Source: Halopseudomonas maritima
GTDB lineage: Bacteria > Pseudomonadota > Gammaproteobacteria > Pseudomonadales > Pseudomonadaceae
DNA: 64,000 nucleotides
NCBI RefSeq assembly: GCF_021545785.1
Contig: NZ_CP079801.1
Span: 2,826,057 to 2,890,056 of the forward strand
Reading direction: 5' to 3'
In this document: one piece after another, positions 3,597 to 45,105 of the stretch
Numbering within the stretch: the stretch's first letter is position 1
Layout of the letters: each line of letters opens with the position of its first letter
Made by a program: the position numbers and the translations under genes
Notes under the pieces: generated by a model
The model's database searches: none
Told to the model about the DNA's origin: nothing
Seen by the model: the letters and a program-made list of their open reading frames with translations, nothing else

Positions 3597-4472
3597 ATGC
3601 CATATCTTGTTGCGGTAACCCTGTTGTGGGCGGTGTCATTCAGTCTGATCGGCGAGTATCTGGCGGGGCAGGTGGACAGCTATTTTGCGGTGCTGACCCG
3701 AGCCCTGCTGGCCGGCCTGCTGTTTCTGCCGCTGCTGCGCCTGCGGCTGCTGCCGCGCCCGGTAGTGCCGGGGCTGCTGGTGGTGGGCGCGCTGCAGTTT
3801 GGCGTTACCTATATCTGCCTGTACCAGTCATTCGAGTACATCTCGGTGCCCGAGGTGCTGCTGTTCACCATCTTCACGCCCCTGCATGTCGCGCTTATTG
3901 ATGATCTGTTGAACCGCCGCTTCAGCAGTGGCCCGCTGGTGGCTGCCGCTATCGCGGTGGTGGGCGCGGGCATCATCCGCTACGACGGTTTGAGCGACAG
4001 CTTTATTCGCGGCTTTCTGATCCTGCAGCTGGCCAACTTTACCTTCGCCGCCGGGCAGGTGGGCTACGCCCATCTGGTGCGTCGTTATGAGCTAACCTCA
4101 ACCCAGCAGTGGCGCGGCTTTGGCTTGTTTTTCATCGGCGCACTGATGGTGATGCTGCCGGCCTGGCTGCTGTTGGGCAACCCGGAACGGCTGCCGCACA
4201 CCGCGTTGCAGTGGTCGGTGCTGGCCTGGCTGGGGCTGGTGGCGTCTGGGCTGGGCTTTCTGTTCTGGAACCGCGGCGCCGCGCAGGTGGATGCCGGCAC
4301 CCTCGGTATTATGAACAACGCGCTGGTGCCGGCGGGGCTGCTGGTCAACCTGCTGATCTGGAACCGCGAGGCGGATCTGCTGCGTCTGGCTGCTGGCTCG
4401 GCGGTGCTTGGCCTGTCTCTGTGGGTCAACGCGCGCTGGCCGCACTGGTTTGCACGGCCGGTGCAGGGCTGA
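3597..4472 (+). CDS. DMT-superfamily (EamA-like) transporter
   Basis: 291 aa from ATG 3597 (MPYLVAVTLLWAVSFSL); about 10 predicted TM helices; duplicated EamA-like halves. The GTG 3516 extension overlaps the repeats and is rejected. Confidence 0.75.
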   Translation: MPYLVAVTLLWAVSFSLIGEYLAGQVDSYFAVLTRALLAGLLFLPLLRLRLLPRPVVPGLLVVGALQFGVTYICLYQSFEYISVPEVLLFTIFTPLHVALIDDLLNRRFSSGPLVAAAIAVVGAGIIRYDGLSDSFIRGFLILQLANFTFAAGQVGYAHLVRRYELTSTQQWRGFGLFFIGALMVMLPAWLLLGNPERLPHTALQWSVLAWLGLVASGLGFLFWNRGAAQVDAGTLGIMNNALVPAGLLVNLLIWNREADLLRLAAGSAVLGLSLWVNARWPHWFARPVQG

Positions 4473-39599: not shown

Positions 39600-41320
39600 T
39601 GCGTATCGAGACCCGTCCACTGCCGGATGTCATGCCTGCGCTGGGGGAGCTGCCACCGCTGCTGAGTCGGCTCTACGCTGCCCGTGGTGTGCTCAGTGAG
39701 ACGGAGCTGGATCGCCGCCTGCAGGCACTGCTGCCTTACAGCGGCCTGCGGGGCATTGAGCAGGCGGTTGCCGTGCTCGAATCAGCACTGCGCGAGCGGC
39801 GCTCGATACTGATCGTTGGCGACTTTGATGCTGACGGCGCTACCGCCAGCAGTGTCGCGGTGCTGGCGCTGCGCCAGCTGGGCGCGGCGCAGGTTGATTA
39901 TCTGGTGCCAAACCGCTTCGAGTACGGCTACGGTCTCACGCCCGAGATCGTTGAGGTTGCCCTGACACGCAGCCCCGACCTGCTGGTCACCGTGGATAAC
40001 GGTATTTCCAGCATCGATGGCGTAGCGGCAGCCAAAGCTGCAGGCCTGCAGGTTGTGGTCACCGACCATCACTTGCCGGGTGCCGAGCTGCCCCGGGCGG
40101 ACGCTATCGTCAACCCGAGCCAGCCAGGCTGCGACTTTGCGAGCAAGGCCATGGCGGGTGTCGGGGTCATCTTCTATGTGATGCTCGCGCTGCGCGCAGC
40201 GCTGCGTGAGAGCGGCTGGTTTGTCGAGACCGGCCGTGCTGAACCCAATCTGGCCGAACTGTTGGACCTGGTCGCACTGGGTACCGTGGCGGACGTGGTG
40301 CCGCTGGATGCCAATAACCGCATTATGGTGCACCAGGGGCTGGCGCGTATTCGGGCTGGCCGCTGCCGCCCCGGTATTCGTGCGCTGCTTGAGGTTGCCG
40401 GCAGACCGCGCGAGCGTCTGGTGTCAACCGATCTGGGCTTTATTGTCGGTCCGCGTCTGAATGCGGCGGGGCGCCTGGACGATATCAGCCTGGGTATCGA
40501 GTGCCTGCTGACCGAGGACGAGGGGCTGGCGCTGGACATGGCCCGTGAGCTGGATGGTCTCAACCGCGACCGTAAGGCGATCGAGCGAGACATGCAGCAG
40601 CAGGCGCTGAAAACCCTCGAAGCTATGCAGCTCGATGAACAGGATCTGCCCTTCGGGTTGTGCCTGTTTGATGCCGAGTGGCATCAGGGCGTTATCGGCA
40701 TTCTCGCCTCGCGTCTGAAAGAGCGTTTTCATCGGCCGGTGATCGCCTTTGCCGATGCGGGCGACGGGATGATCAAGGGCTCGGCACGCTCTATTGCAGG
40801 TCTGCACATCCGCGATGCGCTGGATGCGGTAGCGGCTCGTCATCCCAATTTGCTCAACAAGTTTGGTGGCCACGCCATGGCTGCCGGTATGACGTTGCGC
40901 GAGGCGGACTTCCCGGCCTTTGCCGAAGCCTTCGATGCCGAGGTGCGTCGTCAGCTGCAACCGGCGGACCTGGCCGGCCGGCTGCTGTCCGACGGCCAAC
41001 TGGAGGCTACCGAGCTGTCGCTGGAGATGGCCGCTTCATTGCGTGAAGCCGGTCCTTGGGGGCAGCATTTTCCCGAGCCGCTGTTTCATGGCGAATTTGA
41101 GGTGCTACAGCAGCGTCTGGTCGGTGAGCGGCATCTGAAGATGGTGCTGCGCGTTGCAGCCAGCGCTGAGGTGCTGGACGCCATTGCCTTCAACATTGAT
41201 CCGCACGTTTGGCCCGACCCTGCCGTGCAGCGCGTGCTGTTGGCTTACACGCTGGACATCAACGAGTTTCGCGGGCGCCGCAGCCTGCAGTTGATGGTTC
41301 GTCACCTGGAGCCTTGCTAG
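39599..41320 (+). CDS. recJ: single-stranded-DNA-specific exonuclease RecJ
   Basis: About 573 aa; DHH motifs (ILIVGDFDADGATAS; VVVTDHHLPG) and the DHHA1 region; C-terminal OB domain. Confidence 0.9.
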   Translation: MRIETRPLPDVMPALGELPPLLSRLYAARGVLSETELDRRLQALLPYSGLRGIEQAVAVLESALRERRSILIVGDFDADGATASSVAVLALRQLGAAQVDYLVPNRFEYGYGLTPEIVEVALTRSPDLLVTVDNGISSIDGVAAAKAAGLQVVVTDHHLPGAELPRADAIVNPSQPGCDFASKAMAGVGVIFYVMLALRAALRESGWFVETGRAEPNLAELLDLVALGTVADVVPLDANNRIMVHQGLARIRAGRCRPGIRALLEVAGRPRERLVSTDLGFIVGPRLNAAGRLDDISLGIECLLTEDEGLALDMARELDGLNRDRKAIERDMQQQALKTLEAMQLDEQDLPFGLCLFDAEWHQGVIGILASRLKERFHRPVIAFADAGDGMIKGSARSIAGLHIRDALDAVAARHPNLLNKFGGHAMAAGMTLREADFPAFAEAFDAEVRRQLQPADLAGRLLSDGQLEATELSLEMAASLREAGPWGQHFPEPLFHGEFEVLQQRLVGERHLKMVLRVAASAEVLDAIAFNIDPHVWPDPAVQRVLLAYTLDINEFRGRRSLQLMVRHLEPC

Positions 41321-41444
41321 GCCGCGTGCAGTTGCTGTCGCCCATTCGGGTGGCAGGGATTGACCTTGATGGCACTTTGGTTTTTGATGCATTGATACAA
41401 GAGCGTCGATTGCATCACATTTAGGCTGGCAGAGTTTGAGTAGG

Positions 41445-41795
41445 CTAGGGTCTGTTGACGTTTCGTTCGCCCGCCTGTTGTTACTCGTAAAGCCGCCAAT
41501 CAAGGAGCGAGGAGCGTAGTTTGGTTATTCCAAATAAACGACGAGCGACGTTGAATGGCGGCTTTACAGGCGCAACCTCGGCGGCCTCATCTGGAGGGCC
41601 GGGTTCATTTTTCGGCCGTACGGCGTTGTCGGTCGCTTATGTGGAGTAACCAGCAAAACGCCGGGCGCGTTTTGGCGCGCCAGCCCTGCCGGGGTGACGC
41701 GCGGGGCTGCGCTGAACACACTGCACTCCCTCTGCCTTGTCTGGCCGAAAAATGGCCTCCGGCAGGCCGGCGAACGAAACGTCAACAGACCCTAG
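41445..41795. repeat. 351-bp noncoding element bounded by 27-bp perfect inverted repeats (CTAGGGTCTGTTGACGTTTCGTTCGCC ... GGCGAACGAAACGTCAACAGACCCTAG), with nested internal inverted repeats; candidate MITE or large structured element
   Basis: Terminal inverted repeats at 41445-41471 and 41769-41795 seen directly. Internal dyads GTAAAGCCGCCA...TGGCGGCTTTAC and GGCGCG-TTTTG-GCGCGCC. Confidence 0.6.
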
Positions 41796-41796
41796 G

Positions 41797-42819
41797 TGTG
41801 ATCTTTCAGTAGGTTGTTCATTCGGGACATACCCGGCAGATTGGAGGTGCGAAACAACAAGCCCCCGGAGTCCCGAATGAACAATCACAAAAATGCCCGA
41901 TTAACTGTCCATGGTCGAGCCCTTTTGATCACTCGTATCCTTGAAGATGGTCTGCGCCCCTGCGAAGCTGCACAAGCGATGGGGGTCAGCCTGCGTACCG
42001 CTTACAAGTGGCTCGCGCGCTACAAAAACGAAGGCCACGACGGGCTGCACAATCGTTCTTCCCGACCTCGCTATTGCCCGCATGAAACGCCACCTGATCA
42101 GCAACAGCAGATCATTGAACAGCGCCGCGAGCGCCGAGTTTATAGGCATATCAGCGCCCAGGTAGGCGTGAGCGTCGCCACTATCGGCCGAGTTTTACGA
42201 CGAGCTGGCCTGAACCGGCTGAGTGCGCTTGAGCCTGCGCGGCCGACCAATCGATATGAGCACGACAACCCTGGCGACCTGTTGCACTTGGATATCAAGA
42301 AGCTGGCACGCTTCCGGCGCCCCGGTCACCGTGTCACAGGTGAGTTCAAAGGGAAGTCGCACGGCGCAGGCTGGGAGTACATCCACATAGCCATTGACGA
42401 CCATAGCCGTGTTGCGTGGGCAACGACTCATCCTGACGAGACGGCTGCCAGTGCATGGCGTGCGCTGACTAGCGCCATTCGCTACTACCGGTCACTCGGG
42501 ATACGTATTCAGCGCTTGCTGACGGACAACGGTAGCTGCTATCGCTCCGCGCTGTTTGCACGCGCTTGCCGACGACTGGGGCTCAAGCATGGCCGCACGC
42601 AGCCCTATACGCCACGAACCAACGGCAAGGCCGAGCGCTGGATACAAACGGCATTACGGGAGTGGGCTTATGCTCGTTCTTACGACGACTCTGAGCAAAG
42701 AGCAGATCATCTAAATGCATGGCTACATCAGTACAACTGGCATCGCCCACACTCAGCTATCGGTGATCTGCCACCTATCAGCAGGCTGCCGAAGATGAAC
42801 AACCTACTGGCTTTACACA
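41797..42819 (+). mobile_element. IS481-family insertion sequence (1023 bp) with 6-bp CCTAGG target-site duplication
   Basis: Imperfect terminal IRs TGTGATCTTTCAGTAGGTTGTTCAT / ATGAACAACCTACTGGCTTTACACA resemble the IS481 ends (TGTGAAGATTCAATAGGTTGT...). Direct repeats CCTAGG at 41791-41796 and 42820-42825. Insertion at a CTAG site; the transposase TAG stop is supplied by the target. Confidence 0.85.
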
Positions 42820-42824
42820 CCTAG
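41877..42824 (+). CDS. IS481-family DDE transposase (integrase core domain)
   Basis: 315 aa; N-terminal HTH (MNNHKNARLTVHGRALLITRILEDG...) and rve-type DDE catalytic core (HLDIKKL...DNGSCY...E). Confidence 0.9.
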   Translation: MNNHKNARLTVHGRALLITRILEDGLRPCEAAQAMGVSLRTAYKWLARYKNEGHDGLHNRSSRPRYCPHETPPDQQQQIIEQRRERRVYRHISAQVGVSVATIGRVLRRAGLNRLSALEPARPTNRYEHDNPGDLLHLDIKKLARFRRPGHRVTGEFKGKSHGAGWEYIHIAIDDHSRVAWATTHPDETAASAWRALTSAIRYYRSLGIRIQRLLTDNGSCYRSALFARACRRLGLKHGRTQPYTPRTNGKAERWIQTALREWAYARSYDDSEQRADHLNAWLHQYNWHRPHSAIGDLPPISRLPKMNNLLALHT

Positions 42825-42834
42825 GGGCCAGTTA

Positions 42835-45105
42835 GTGGCGGATCTGAAACAGAAGTTGCTCAATATGCAGCGCCAGCTTGGGCTCAACCCTGATGAGGTA
42901 CGCCAGCGGTTGCGCCTGTTGCTGATGGGGGACGCGGGGTTTGACTGCCTGGCCGCGCATCTGCCGGCGCTGGACCGCTTGCACGCCGACTGCATCGAAG
43001 GGTTGCTGGCGCATCTCAACAGTATTGAAGGGAGCGCCGCGCTGCTCGCCTCGTCTGGTCGCACAGAGCAGCTGCAGGGGCTGCAGAAGGGCTACTTTCA
43101 GCAGCTGCTGCGTGGCCCTTACGACATGCAGTACGTACGTTTGCGGCTGCTGGTGGGGTTAGCCCATCAGCGCCTGGGCGTGGAGCTCAAGTGGTATCTG
43201 GCGGCCTTCCATTTCTATCTGGATTTCATGCACAAGGCGATCAACCGTCACTGGCGCAGCGAGCCCAAGCTGGCCGAGCAGTTGTACGGCTGCCTGCTCA
43301 AGTCCGCCTTTTTCGACATTTCTCTGACCGCCGATACCTATATTGCTGCTGACAAGCAGGCGTTGCAGGCCAGCGAAGACCGCTATGCACGCGCGGTGCG
43401 TGGCGCCAACGACGGGCTTTGGGAGTGGCATGTCGAAGACGACCGCCTGTATCTGTCTGACCGTTGGCTAGCCATGCTTGGGCTGGATGCCGCTCGCGCT
43501 CCGCGTAGCTTGAGCGACTGGGCGGCGCTGATCCCCGAGGCGCAGCGGGGCGACTTTCTGGCAGCACTGCAGGCCCACCTGGATGGACGGCAGGCGTTTT
43601 TGCATGTCGAGTGCCAGCTGCGCGATAGCTGGGGGCGCCTGATCTGGGTGATGATTCGCGCTGTTGCTTCCACCGACCGTCAGGGAGAGCGCCTGCTCGC
43701 GGGTTCGCTCACGGATATCAGTCAGCGCAAGCAAACCGAGCAGGCGTTGGCGCATCAGGCGTTGCATGATGCGCTGACCGGCCTGCCTAACCGGCAGCAG
43801 GTTGGTGCGTTGCTCAGTCAGGCGCTGCAGCGTCAGGGTAAGCCTGGAGCCCGGCATGCTGCGGTGCTGTTTATCGATCTGGATCGTTTCAAGCTGATCA
43901 ACGAAAGCCTGGGTCATCAGACCGGCGATCAGGTGTTGATTCAGGTTGCCAAGCGCATCGAGCGTTGTCTGCGCCCCGGTGATCACCTGGGGCGCTTTGG
44001 CGGGGACGAGTTTGTCGTTTTGCTGGATGACCTGGCCCAGCCGCATGATGCCGAACTGGTCGGTCAGCGCATCATGCACGCCTTGCAGTATCCAATCGTT
44101 GCCGGATCGCGCCGGCTTGCGGTCAGCGTCAGCATTGGCGTGGCACCCATGAAAGACCACGGCGATGAACAGGACGCTTTGCGTGAGGCTGACCTGGCGC
44201 TGTACCGCGCCAAGGCCTATGGCAAGGGGCAGCTGGCGCTGTACAACGACAGTCTGCAGGAAGAGGCGACTCAGCGGCTCAATCTGGAAAATGCCCTCAG
44301 TGAAGCGCTGAGCCGTGACCAGTTCGAGCTGTACTATCAGCCCATCGTCCAGGTGTCGGCCGGCCGCACGCTGGTGGTTGGGGTAGAGGCGCTGCTGCGC
44401 TGGTGGCAGGGCGAGCGGATGGTGCCGCCGGATGAGTTTATTCCGGTGCTGGAGGAGTCTGGTGAGATCGTCGCGGTGGGCGAGTGGGTGCTGCGTCAGG
44501 CCTGCACCCAGGTTCGTCAGTGGCACTCGCAGGGTCTGGCCGGGTTGCGATGTTCGGTTAATCTCTCCAGCCGCCAGCTGCAAGAGCCGGGTTTTGCCGA
44601 CCGGGTGGCGCAGATTCTCAAGGAAACCGGCTTGCCACCCGCGAGTCTGGTGCTGGAAATAACCGAAAGCCTGCTGATGCGTGACGGGCCAGACACGCTG
44701 GCGACATTGCGCGAACTGGAAAGCATGGGTGTACGCATTGCGCTGGATGATTTTGGCACCGGCTTCTCCTCGCTGGGTTACCTGCATCGCTATCCGCTGC
44801 ACATCATCAAGGTCGACAAGAGCTTTATCACCAAGGCTCCCAACGACGAGCGGCTCAAAGCCATCAGTCGAGCCATCATCGGGCTGGGCAAGGGGCTGGA
44901 CATGGACGTGATTGCCGAAGGTATCGAAACGCCCGAGCAGATGGATTTTCTGCATAACGAGGGCTGCCAGTTCGTGCAGGGCTACTGGTTCAGCCGGCCG
45001 CAGTCGGCGGCTGTCATCCACCCTGTGCTGCAGCGGTTGTCGGTGATTGACTCACCGGAGACCTCGCTGCTGGAGCTGAGTCCGGCAACTGCTATAGTGC
45101 AGTGA
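42835..45105 (+). CDS. Globin-coupled sensor - PAS - GGDEF - EAL multidomain c-di-GMP turnover protein
   Basis: 756 aa; N-terminal sensor-globin fold with proximal-His motif (LAHQRLGVELKWYLAAF); PAS; GGDEF (RFGGDEFVVLL) with RxxD; EAL (EALLRW ... DDFGTGFSSL ... EGIE). Start (GTG 42835, or ATG 42865) lies 10 bp after the IS481 target duplication. Confidence 0.85.
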   Translation: MADLKQKLLNMQRQLGLNPDEVRQRLRLLLMGDAGFDCLAAHLPALDRLHADCIEGLLAHLNSIEGSAALLASSGRTEQLQGLQKGYFQQLLRGPYDMQYVRLRLLVGLAHQRLGVELKWYLAAFHFYLDFMHKAINRHWRSEPKLAEQLYGCLLKSAFFDISLTADTYIAADKQALQASEDRYARAVRGANDGLWEWHVEDDRLYLSDRWLAMLGLDAARAPRSLSDWAALIPEAQRGDFLAALQAHLDGRQAFLHVECQLRDSWGRLIWVMIRAVASTDRQGERLLAGSLTDISQRKQTEQALAHQALHDALTGLPNRQQVGALLSQALQRQGKPGARHAAVLFIDLDRFKLINESLGHQTGDQVLIQVAKRIERCLRPGDHLGRFGGDEFVVLLDDLAQPHDAELVGQRIMHALQYPIVAGSRRLAVSVSIGVAPMKDHGDEQDALREADLALYRAKAYGKGQLALYNDSLQEEATQRLNLENALSEALSRDQFELYYQPIVQVSAGRTLVVGVEALLRWWQGERMVPPDEFIPVLEESGEIVAVGEWVLRQACTQVRQWHSQGLAGLRCSVNLSSRQLQEPGFADRVAQILKETGLPPASLVLEITESLLMRDGPDTLATLRELESMGVRIALDDFGTGFSSLGYLHRYPLHIIKVDKSFITKAPNDERLKAISRAIIGLGKGLDMDVIAEGIETPEQMDFLHNEGCQFVQGYWFSRPQSAAVIHPVLQRLSVIDSPETSLLELSPATAIVQ

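Follow-up and report, generated by a model that had tools for sequence, protein, structure and literature searches.

Within the 64-kb stretch of DNA analyzed here, which we call the window, an insertion sequence (IS) of the IS481 family lies in the 5′ leader of a gene for a Protoglobin-PAS-GGDEF-EAL protein, and an older palindromic insert in the same leader and a candidate native promoter lie upstream of it (Table 1). The initial annotation had described an element of the IS481 family inserted into a CTAG site, flanked by CCTAGG direct repeats and placed 10 bp upstream of a globin GGDEF-EAL gene of the same orientation, and its description holds, since the ends, the duplication and the transposase profile all agree and the coordinates match. 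The right copy of the duplication is separated from the GTG start codon of the sensor gene by 9 nt, such that the first base of the GTG is 10 bp past the last duplicated base.

Table 1. Features of the recJ-sensor spacer, the IS481-family element and the sensor gene (positions in the window).
Feature	Position	Strand	Remarks
Candidate native sigma-70-type promoter, TTGACC-17 nt-TTTGAT	41360..41388	+	ortholog conservation, 9/12 consensus match
Older palindromic insert bounded by inverted repeats, 352 nt	41445..41796	.	5′ leader; CTAG on both sides
Left target-site duplication copy, CCTAGG	41791..41796		
IS481-family insertion sequence	41797..42819	+	1023 bp, intact
Left terminal inverted repeat (IRL)	41797..41821	+	consensus TGTGA..AGGTTGTTCA common to ~68 relatives
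Stem-loop (predicted)	41812..41887	+	inner IRL 41812-41828 pairs with transposase start region 41870-41887, including ATG 41877
Transposase gene, 315 aa	41877..42824	+	stop TAG 42822-42824 inside duplicated target
Right terminal inverted repeat (IRR)	42795..42819	-	doubles as coding sequence of the transposase C-terminus
Right target-site duplication copy, CCTAGG	42820..42825		alignment to L001 restarts at 42820
Sensor gene Shine-Dalgarno sequence, AGGGG (predicted)	42823..42827	+	overlaps transposase stop codon
Protoglobin-PAS-GGDEF-EAL gene, intact, 756 aa	42835..45105	+	native GTG start

The left end of the element reads TGTGATCTTTCAGTAGGTTGTTCAT and the reverse complement of its right end reads TGTGTAAAGCCAGTAGGTTGTTCAT, which gives imperfect terminal inverted repeats of 25 nt with TGT at the start, and the 6-bp target duplication is perfect and fits the NCTAGN consensus. 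The 15-nt core of the inverted repeats, CAGTAGGTTGTTCAT, is found at two places in the 64 kb, both of them ends of the IS, where 0.04 would be expected by chance, and the window contains a single copy of the element. The transposase is a single ORF without a frameshift, with Pfam matches to LZ_Tnp_IS481 (PF13011, 94.5 bits), rve and rve_3, and it scores 313.3 bits with the NCBIfam model NF033577 for "IS481 family transposase", which has a cutoff of 224. Its DDE triad consists of D139 (HLDIK), D217 (LTDNG) and E253 (GKAERW); 35 residues separate the second aspartate from the glutamate. By its profile score, its DDE triad, its length and inverted repeats, the 6-bp NCTAGN duplication and a target-derived stop codon, the element belongs to the IS481 family. 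It has in common with IS481 of Bordetella pertussis, ISRe46 of Rhodococcus equi, and ISLxc2 and ISLxx4 of Leifsonia xyli a size of ~1 kb and a single DDE ORF with a leucine-zipper/HTH N-terminus, and it shares with members of the family inverted repeats starting with TGT, an NCTAGN target, a 6-bp duplication and a TAG stop taken from the target (PMC6794481, PMC2516522).

The most likely start codon of the transposase is ATG 41877, which has a GGAG sequence 6 nt upstream and is the point from which the IS481 profile and every relative begin, rather than the mechanically listed TTG 41814. At the other end, the ORF reaches the extreme end of the IS, and the TAG of the duplicated target is therefore its stop codon. 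That the CTAG target supplies the stop had been noticed in the initial annotation with IS481 itself given as the parallel, and the observation stands, with the right duplication as the source of the TAG, but the parallel is drawn here from papers on other family members, ISRe46 (PMC6794481) and ISLxc2/ISLxx4 (PMC2516522), in each of which the CTAG target provides the TAG stop, rather than from IS481 proper. The transposase ORF also ends in the flanking CTAG in 62 of 73 metagenomic relatives, and in 7 more it ends in CTAA.

Copies of the IS with 98% nucleotide identity are present at other sites with other flanks in two metagenomic loci (L010 and L011), and a copy with 83% nucleotide identity is located at another site in a third metagenomic locus (L012). 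Among 5.8 billion proteins, a metagenomic copy at 98% comes closest to the transposase, followed by one at 78%, and a search of a plasmid database with the IS returned partial matches that cover at most 49% of the query at ~68-71% identity. The same ends flanked by NCTAGN recur in ~68 relatives, a few of which have N(C/T)TA(A/G)N flanks instead (CTAA or TTAG). The sequence of the IS is new, and the traits of NCTAGN targeting, target-supplied stop and effects on flanking genes are already published for the IS481 family; what the survey of ~70 relatives contributes is that the published traits hold clade-wide. A preference of the clade for landing directly before co-oriented genes was considered and is ruled out, as there is no bias between the two ends: 13 of 41 right-end flanks have an ORF of 80 aa or more that starts within 60 nt of the IS, as do 13 of 36 left-end flanks read outward.

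The element is also predicted to form a stem-loop over the start codon of its transposase. The fold has an MFE of -37.4 kcal/mol (z -4.3), and an explicit pair count across 63 relatives finds compensatory changes at 8 of the 17 pairs, with 87% of cells paired; the observed covariation score is matched by none of 500 shuffles. RNAalifold run on a MAFFT alignment did not recover this long-range hairpin, and a search of the entire window against Rfam with gathering thresholds, which covers both the palindromic leader and the IS hairpin, gave no matches. Translation-blocking 5′ stem-loops are known from IS10 and IS50. In the case of IS200, a stem-loop in the start region represses the transposase (PMC4513863), and there too an inverted repeat near the left end pairs with the ribosome-binding and start region of the transposase. 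As with IS200-type stem-loops, the structure predicted here would stop translation mainly on transcripts that enter from outside, though it differs from them in that its 5′ arm is the inner IRL itself and its 3′ arm holds the ATG, and in that the support here is from covariation only.

The protein encoded downstream of the IS has a protoglobin domain at residues 20-173 (PF11563, 84.5 bits) and Pfam matches to GGDEF (149 bits) and EAL (251 bits), and it scores under the cutoff of every named NCBIfam equivalog. Its output motifs are RPGD380 (the I-site), GGDEF389, EALLRW518, DDFGTG638 and EGIE695, and by these motifs a catalytically competent GGDEF and/or EAL output is predicted. Residue H111 (LAHQRLG) is the proximal histidine and aligns with His123 of HemAT (SIHLRIG), whereas the distal Tyr70 of HemAT (DAFYKNL), the B10 residue that stabilizes bound O2, lies opposite a leucine (EGLLAHL) in the sensor, a placement that comes from a single pairwise phmmer alignment of 31 bits. 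The c-di-GMP signalling at this locus had been called O2/NO-responsive; the proximal histidine does line up with that of HemAT, but a response to O2 or NO is not established, given the leucine opposite HemAT Tyr70. A globin-coupled histidine kinase was matched along with HemAT. Globin-coupled sensors with c-di-GMP output include DosC of E. coli and BpeGReg of B. pertussis. The protein resembles such sensors and HemAT in its N-terminal sensor globin with a proximal histidine, and its GGDEF motif is intact and accompanied by an RxxD I-site, but it differs from sensors of the DosC/BpeGReg type in adding a PAS domain and a complete EAL domain.

Eight full-length orthologs of the sensor were found at IS-free loci, and the closest of these, from Halopseudomonas pachastrellae T53 (L001), is 95.6% identical to it. 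Comparison with IS-free relatives, which the initial annotation had proposed, yields in this genome the empty site, where the uninterrupted sequence runs ...CAACAGACCCCAGGGGCCAAGTAGTG and the target itself reads CCCAGG. The alignment of L001 to the window ends at 41475, inside the palindromic insert and among indels in the leader, and restarts exactly at the first base of the right duplication. We regard the insertion before the sensor gene as a recent, strain-specific transposition; there was no sign of a fixed and degenerate element, or of an IS-free sister strain that fails to restore a single CCTAGG. All eight orthologs share the GTG start, L001-L007 also keep a GGGG(G) run 7-8 nt upstream of it, and in L002 and L003 there is no alternative in-frame start further upstream. 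The N-terminus of the sensor is thereby confirmed, and the suggestion that the protein might be N-terminally truncated is refuted by the occurrence of the same GTG and GGGG Shine-Dalgarno sequence in the IS-free orthologs. The proposed use of this GTG with an AGGGG sequence formed in part by the duplicated target is likewise upheld. Judged by these alignments, the sensor gene remained intact after the insertion, as did the GTG start and the predicted ribosome-binding site.

Upstream of the IS, a single block of the recJ-sensor spacer shows conservation across all eight orthologs, and it contains the candidate promoter, which is also the only plus-strand sequence in 41300-42860 with a 9/12 match to the sigma-70 consensus. 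A stricter scan, in which the second base of the -10 hexamer has to be A, gave no hit. On the basis of its conservation and consensus match, we regard TTGACC-17-TTTGAT as a candidate for the promoter that drives the sensor gene. It lies 69-87 nt upstream of the GTG in L002, L003, L007 and L008 and ~1.45 kb upstream of it in the window. The earlier statement that the native promoter has been displaced by ~1 kb agrees with the geometry of the insertion, which amounts to 1029 bp, and the conserved promoter-like motif backs such a displacement. Between this motif and the IS lies the palindromic insert, which is bounded by perfect terminal inverted repeats of 23 nt (41449-41471 and 41769-41791) and whose RNA is predicted to fold at -198 kcal/mol (z -10.6), with a weak terminator-like hairpin within it at 41582-41601. 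A shorter version of the insert is present in L001 alone, and it is missing from L002-L008; no second copy of the palindrome was found in the window or in 90 fetched loci. The possibility that it is a MITE of the IS clade was rejected, as its termini (GGTCTGTTGACG...) are unlike the inverted repeats of the clade. The CTAG used as target by the IS is at the edge of this older insert.

With regard to transcription through the element, no terminator-like sites are predicted on the plus strand between 41797 and 42835, and inside the IS there is no plus-strand sigma-70-like match of 9/12 or better. A hybrid promoter using TTTACA of the IRR (42812-42817) as its -35 was rejected, because there is no -10 at a distance of 16-18 nt and transcription would start inside the gene. 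Expression of the sensor had been thought to depend on transposase read-through or on an outward promoter of the IS, or else to be silenced. Read-through is indeed relevant, but read-through from the native promoter had been overlooked, and the outward promoter of IS481, Pout, leaves the left end of the element antisense to the transposase (PMC6161684), and therefore would point away from the sensor gene. Transcripts from Pin, on the other hand, extend into adjoining DNA from 97 IS481 copies, and 46 copies, with all IS types counted, show Pin read-through into a co-oriented gene (PMC6161684).

A comparator for the locus is the IS481 insertion at bteA, reported in 2011, in which the IS has likewise entered the leader of a co-oriented gene and separates a native promoter from the start codon (PMC3053399). 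IS-derived transcripts enter bteA, and with IS481 in this orientation in the 5′ UTR the net amount of BteA protein is lowered (PMC3053399). At bteA, 136 bp lie between the IS and the start codon, and the native promoter P1 remains downstream of the insertion. Unlike bteA, the sensor gene has 9 nt between the duplication and its GTG, which leaves no room for a native promoter downstream of the IS, and the transposase stop overlaps its Shine-Dalgarno sequence.

Taken together, the locus has an intact IS in the leader and a promoter-like motif moved away from the gene. We consider it probable that the sensor can still be expressed, at a lower and largely deregulated level, and our best guess for the outcome, which draws on the bteA analogy, would be reduced and deregulated expression. 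Only two transcript routes to the sensor gene would be available, one in which transcription from the native promoter crosses the IS and one in which transcripts of the transposase promoter leave the right end. On native read-through RNA the hairpin would mask the transposase start codon, which would leave ~950 nt without translating ribosomes and exposed to Rho-dependent polarity. Transcripts from the transposase promoter, which is presumed to be weak, may run out of the right end, where no terminator is predicted, and ribosomes ending at the TAG would already be on the sensor Shine-Dalgarno sequence, 10 nt before the GTG, so that re-initiation would be possible. The net effect may be a sensor that is lower in amount and largely uncoupled from native control, as with IS481 at bteA in B. 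pertussis. We can also envisage, as a tentative and rather doubtful extension, that the hairpin and the TAG-ended ORF of the IS481 clade act jointly, such that the transposase stays silent on host read-through RNA and RNA from the transposase promoter is bicistronic with a coupled downstream gene.

Other outcomes have to be weighed against reduced expression. The stop/start arrangement, with the TAG overlapping the Shine-Dalgarno sequence and 10 nt from the GTG, could together with an IS promoter (that of the transposase or one near the right end) lift the sensor above its native level. Such activation would have precedents in IS481, which drives katA and from which abundant bteA transcripts start 11 bp inside the IS end (PMC3053399; PMC6161684), and it would be helped by the lack of a predicted terminator from the transposase gene to the GTG. 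We nonetheless regard it as unlikely, in that the plus strand of the IS has no sigma-70-like match reaching 9/12, transposase promoters are typically weak, and the abundant IS transcript at bteA gave less protein rather than more (PMC3053399). The opposite extreme is that transcription from upstream ends within the palindromic leader or the IS and no transcripts are contributed by the IS, in which case the gene would be effectively switched off and decaying into a pseudogene. The ~1.45 kb that now separates the candidate promoter from the gene, the weak terminator-like hairpin in the leader, and the masked transposase start on read-through RNA, which would favor Rho termination, all point in this direction. 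Complete silencing nevertheless seems quite improbable to us, since no intrinsic plus-strand terminator is predicted in the IS and the ORF is full length at 756 aa, with all catalytic motifs and its close identity to L001, although such preservation tells us no more than that the insertion happened recently or the gene remains in use.

An effect close to neutral is given a similarly poor chance. If the native transcript read efficiently through the whole IS and the sensor were translated from its own Shine-Dalgarno sequence, both level and regulation would be essentially unchanged, and the untouched Shine-Dalgarno sequence and GTG, the lack of a predicted plus-strand terminator and a leader that has already tolerated a 352-nt insert would all fit this. 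A largely untranslated insert of 1 kb in a leader is, however, usually polar, and the output of P1 at bteA fell after the insertion of IS481 (PMC3053399).

One c-di-GMP enzyme of the organism is probably without its native transcriptional control, and strain-level variation of this kind can alter biofilm and motility behavior. Should the joint reading of hairpin and TAG be true, c-di-GMP turnover at this locus would be tied to the transposase's own expression signals. For IS biology the insertion is a real but ordinary event that adds nothing fundamental, and the hairpin, if it is undescribed for the IS481 family, would be a small new piece. The locus also presents successive insertions that have accumulated at CTAG sites within a single short leader, although CTAG is a rare sequence in this genome.

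The Protoglobin-PAS-GGDEF-EAL gene downstream of the IS481-family element (the sensor gene, encoding a c-di-GMP enzyme) has orthologs at eight Halopseudomonas loci, with 75-96% amino acid identity in a scan that took a single genome from each species, and in all eight recJ lies upstream and the element is absent. In the closest of these, from H. pachastrellae T53 (L001), the site reads ...CGAACGAAACGTCAACAGACCCCAGGGGCCAAGTAGTG, which is the window sequence minus the element and one CCTAGG, with one differing target base (CCCAGG), and BLAST co-linearity of the window with L001 to L004 picks up again at 42820-42824. The orthologs keep both the GTG and, 7-8 nt before it, a Shine-Dalgarno sequence (SD) of the form GGGG(G), the alignment dissolving further upstream, and in L002 and L003 no alternative in-frame start was found between the GTG and the next upstream stop codon; on this comparative evidence the GTG at 42835 is the native start and the sensor protein is not truncated. 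The initial annotation had raised a possible N-terminal truncation, which the conserved GTG and SD exclude, and had proposed the comparison with relatives free of the element, which recovered the pre-insertion site in L001 and the true N-terminus.

The sensor protein is full length at 756 amino acids, is 95.6% identical to the L001 ortholog, and carries an RxxD I-site and the GGDEF, EAL and DDFGTG motifs. Its globin domain (42835-43380) shares the proximal histidine of HemAT, with H111 aligning to His123, whereas HemAT's distal Tyr70 aligns to a leucine, with a histidine two residues later. With this leucine the sensed ligand may differ from that of the classic O2-binding globin-coupled sensors.

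Features of the recJ-sensor gene interval and its insertion sequence
Feature	Window positions	Strand	Description
Promoter-like motif	41360-41388	+	lies in the conserved block of the recJ-sensor spacer
Palindromic leader insert	41445-41796		352 nt; perfect 23-nt inverted repeats at 41449-41471 and 41769-41791
Target duplication CCTAGG	41791-41796 and 42820-42825		directly abutting both ends of the element
IS481-family element	41797-42819	+	1023 bp; sequence inspected directly
Hairpin	arms 41812-41828 (inner left inverted repeat) and 41870-41887	+	fold and covariation
Sensor gene	42835-45105 (GTG start)	+	Protoglobin-PAS-GGDEF-EAL architecture (Pfam)

The element begins with TGTGATCTTTCAGTAGGTTGTTCAT and ends, in reverse complement, with TGTGTAAAGCCAGTAGGTTGTTCAT, these termini forming imperfect inverted repeats of 25 nt; with the flanking target included, an inverted-repeat search scored them as a 32-nt pair with 81% complementarity, and the 15-nt core common to both ends is found nowhere else in the 64 kb of the window, with a chance expectation of 0.04. 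Its one long ORF is an IS481-family transposase, with Pfam matches to LZ_Tnp_IS481, rve and rve_3, a score of 313 bits against the NCBIfam equivalog 'IS481 family transposase' (cutoff 224), and an intact DDE triad (D139, D217 and E253) in which 35 residues separate the second aspartate from the glutamate. Both the match to the profile and every relative start at ATG 41877, with GGAG 6 nt upstream, and the transposase is therefore most likely 315 amino acids long, in place of the 336 given by a mechanical ORF call from a TTG. The stop codon, TAG 42822-42824, falls within the right CCTAGG copy. The element is a new member of a well-known family, and the initial annotation, which had described an IS481-family element between CCTAGG repeats whose transposase stop is supplied by the target CTAG, was right in its structural interpretation and in all its statements about the sequence.

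The nearest protein to the transposase in a large collection is a metagenomic copy at 98% identity, the next being 78% identical, and a metagenome scan returned 80 loci at 53-98% identity. Copies of the element with 98% nucleotide identity sit at other sites with other flanks in L010 and L011, and an 83% copy sits in L012. In 62 of the 73 loci with a readable stop codon the ORF ends ...(T)TACACA-N-C-TAG, so that the TAG lies in the flanking CTAG, and seven more end in CTAA. About 68 loci share the ends TGTGA...AGGTTGTTCA at lengths of 1019-1044 bp, almost all with NCTAGN at both sides (CTAA or TTAG replaces it in a few), and the 6-bp duplication is perfect in about 28 of them. More than half of the relatives (L013-L089) have NCTAGN at both ends with unequal outer N bases, which suggests chimeric assembly across a multicopy element or recombination between copies, not imprecise duplication. 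A preference for landing just upstream of same-orientation genes was rejected, since an ORF of at least 80 amino acids starting at most 60 nt from the end of the element was found in 13 of 41 right-end flanks and, reading outward, in 13 of 36 left-end flanks.

The recJ-sensor spacer is poorly conserved apart from a single block, which all eight orthologs share and which holds TTGACC, 17 nt and T(T/C)T(G/C)AT. This motif is the sole 9/12 sigma-70-like match on the + strand within 41300-42860, a stricter promoter scan giving no match there, and its conservation and position make it the candidate promoter of the sensor gene. In L002, L003, L007 and L008 the distance from the end of its -10 element to the GTG is 69-87 nt; in the window it is 1446 nt, of which the insertion sequence and the duplication account for 1029 nt. 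The block as a whole (41360-41425; about 3880-3960 in L001-L008) reads GGGATTGACC, promoter-like spacing, then GATACA.AGA....A.TG.ATCAC, and conservation extends beyond the putative -10 into a stretch that may represent an operator or leader element.

Within the element, the 3' arm of the hairpin includes the transposase ATG and the final base of GGAG. The region 41812-41887 folds at -37.4 kcal/mol (z -4.3), and the same fold occurs in all 63 distinct relatives aligned (from L011-L089), with changes on both sides in 8 of 17 pairs; at pair 26-87, for example, 33 sequences have U-A, 23 have C-G and 4 have G-C. Paired cells amount to 87%, falling to at most 53% once the partner is shifted 1-3 columns along the alignment, and none of 500 shuffles reached the observed covariation. 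Neither coding nor the constraint on the terminal repeats accounts for the positions that covary, which fall immediately internal to the left inverted repeat and immediately before the ATG. Hairpins that silence the transposase are known from IS10 and IS50. IS200 is a precedent for one that keeps the transposase untranslated (PMC4513863). By analogy, the hairpin here would do so, especially on RNAs entering from outside; that it forms, with the target-supplied stop, a clade-wide regulatory design seems doubtful. A weak candidate transposase promoter (TTGTTC in the left inverted repeat, 17 nt, CAGATT) would start transcription inside the hairpin loop.

The 9 nt that separate the duplication from the GTG leave no room for a promoter. 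From 41797 to 42835 the + strand has no predicted terminator-like site, and two routes remain by which the sensor gene could be transcribed. The first is read-through from the promoter-like motif across the palindrome and the element, on which RNA the transposase gene would probably be untranslated, inviting Rho-dependent polarity. Alternatively, transcripts from the transposase promoter would run past the right end, and because the transposase stop overlaps the sensor gene SD (AGGGG 42823-42827), 10 nt ahead of the GTG, ribosome re-initiation at the GTG is possible.

The action of the element here is something for which the IS481 family is already known. In B. pertussis, transcripts from the IS481 promoter Pin extend from 97 copies into adjoining DNA, and in 46 of 101 such cases, counted over all IS types, the DNA they enter belongs to a gene pointing the same way (PMC6161684). 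Pout is directed outward from the left end, on the strand opposite to the transposase (PMC6161684), and an equivalent promoter would here point away from the sensor gene. The nearest parallel is a copy of IS481 that lies in the leader of bteA and shares the orientation of that gene, where an abundant IS-derived transcript accompanies less protein (PMC3053399). From this precedent and the remaining routes, we give reduced and deregulated expression about an even chance, rate activation by the element as unlikely, and regard complete silencing and a near-neutral effect as each slightly less probable than activation. It is reasonable to suppose that the insertion may rewire c-di-GMP signalling.

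The element landed in the CTAG that closes, on the right, the older palindromic leader insert, which has CTAG on both sides, is common to the window and L001 (where it is shorter, about 125 nt at approximately 3866-3990) and is absent from L002-L008. The window version contains nested palindromes and folds as RNA at -198 kcal/mol (z -10.6); no further copy was found in the window or the loci fetched for comparison, and it may be a MITE or a REP-like element. It also holds one weak terminator-like hairpin per strand, at 41582-41604 (+) and 41754-41768 (-), the former of which would have sat in the sensor gene leader already before the element arrived. No palindromic tetramer is as depleted in the window as CTAG, with 28 copies where trinucleotide counts predict 55, and this scarcity may explain insertion at this spot: the 480-bp recJ-sensor spacer held three copies before the insertion (41317, 41445 and 41792), so that a CTAG-targeting element was likely to land there.
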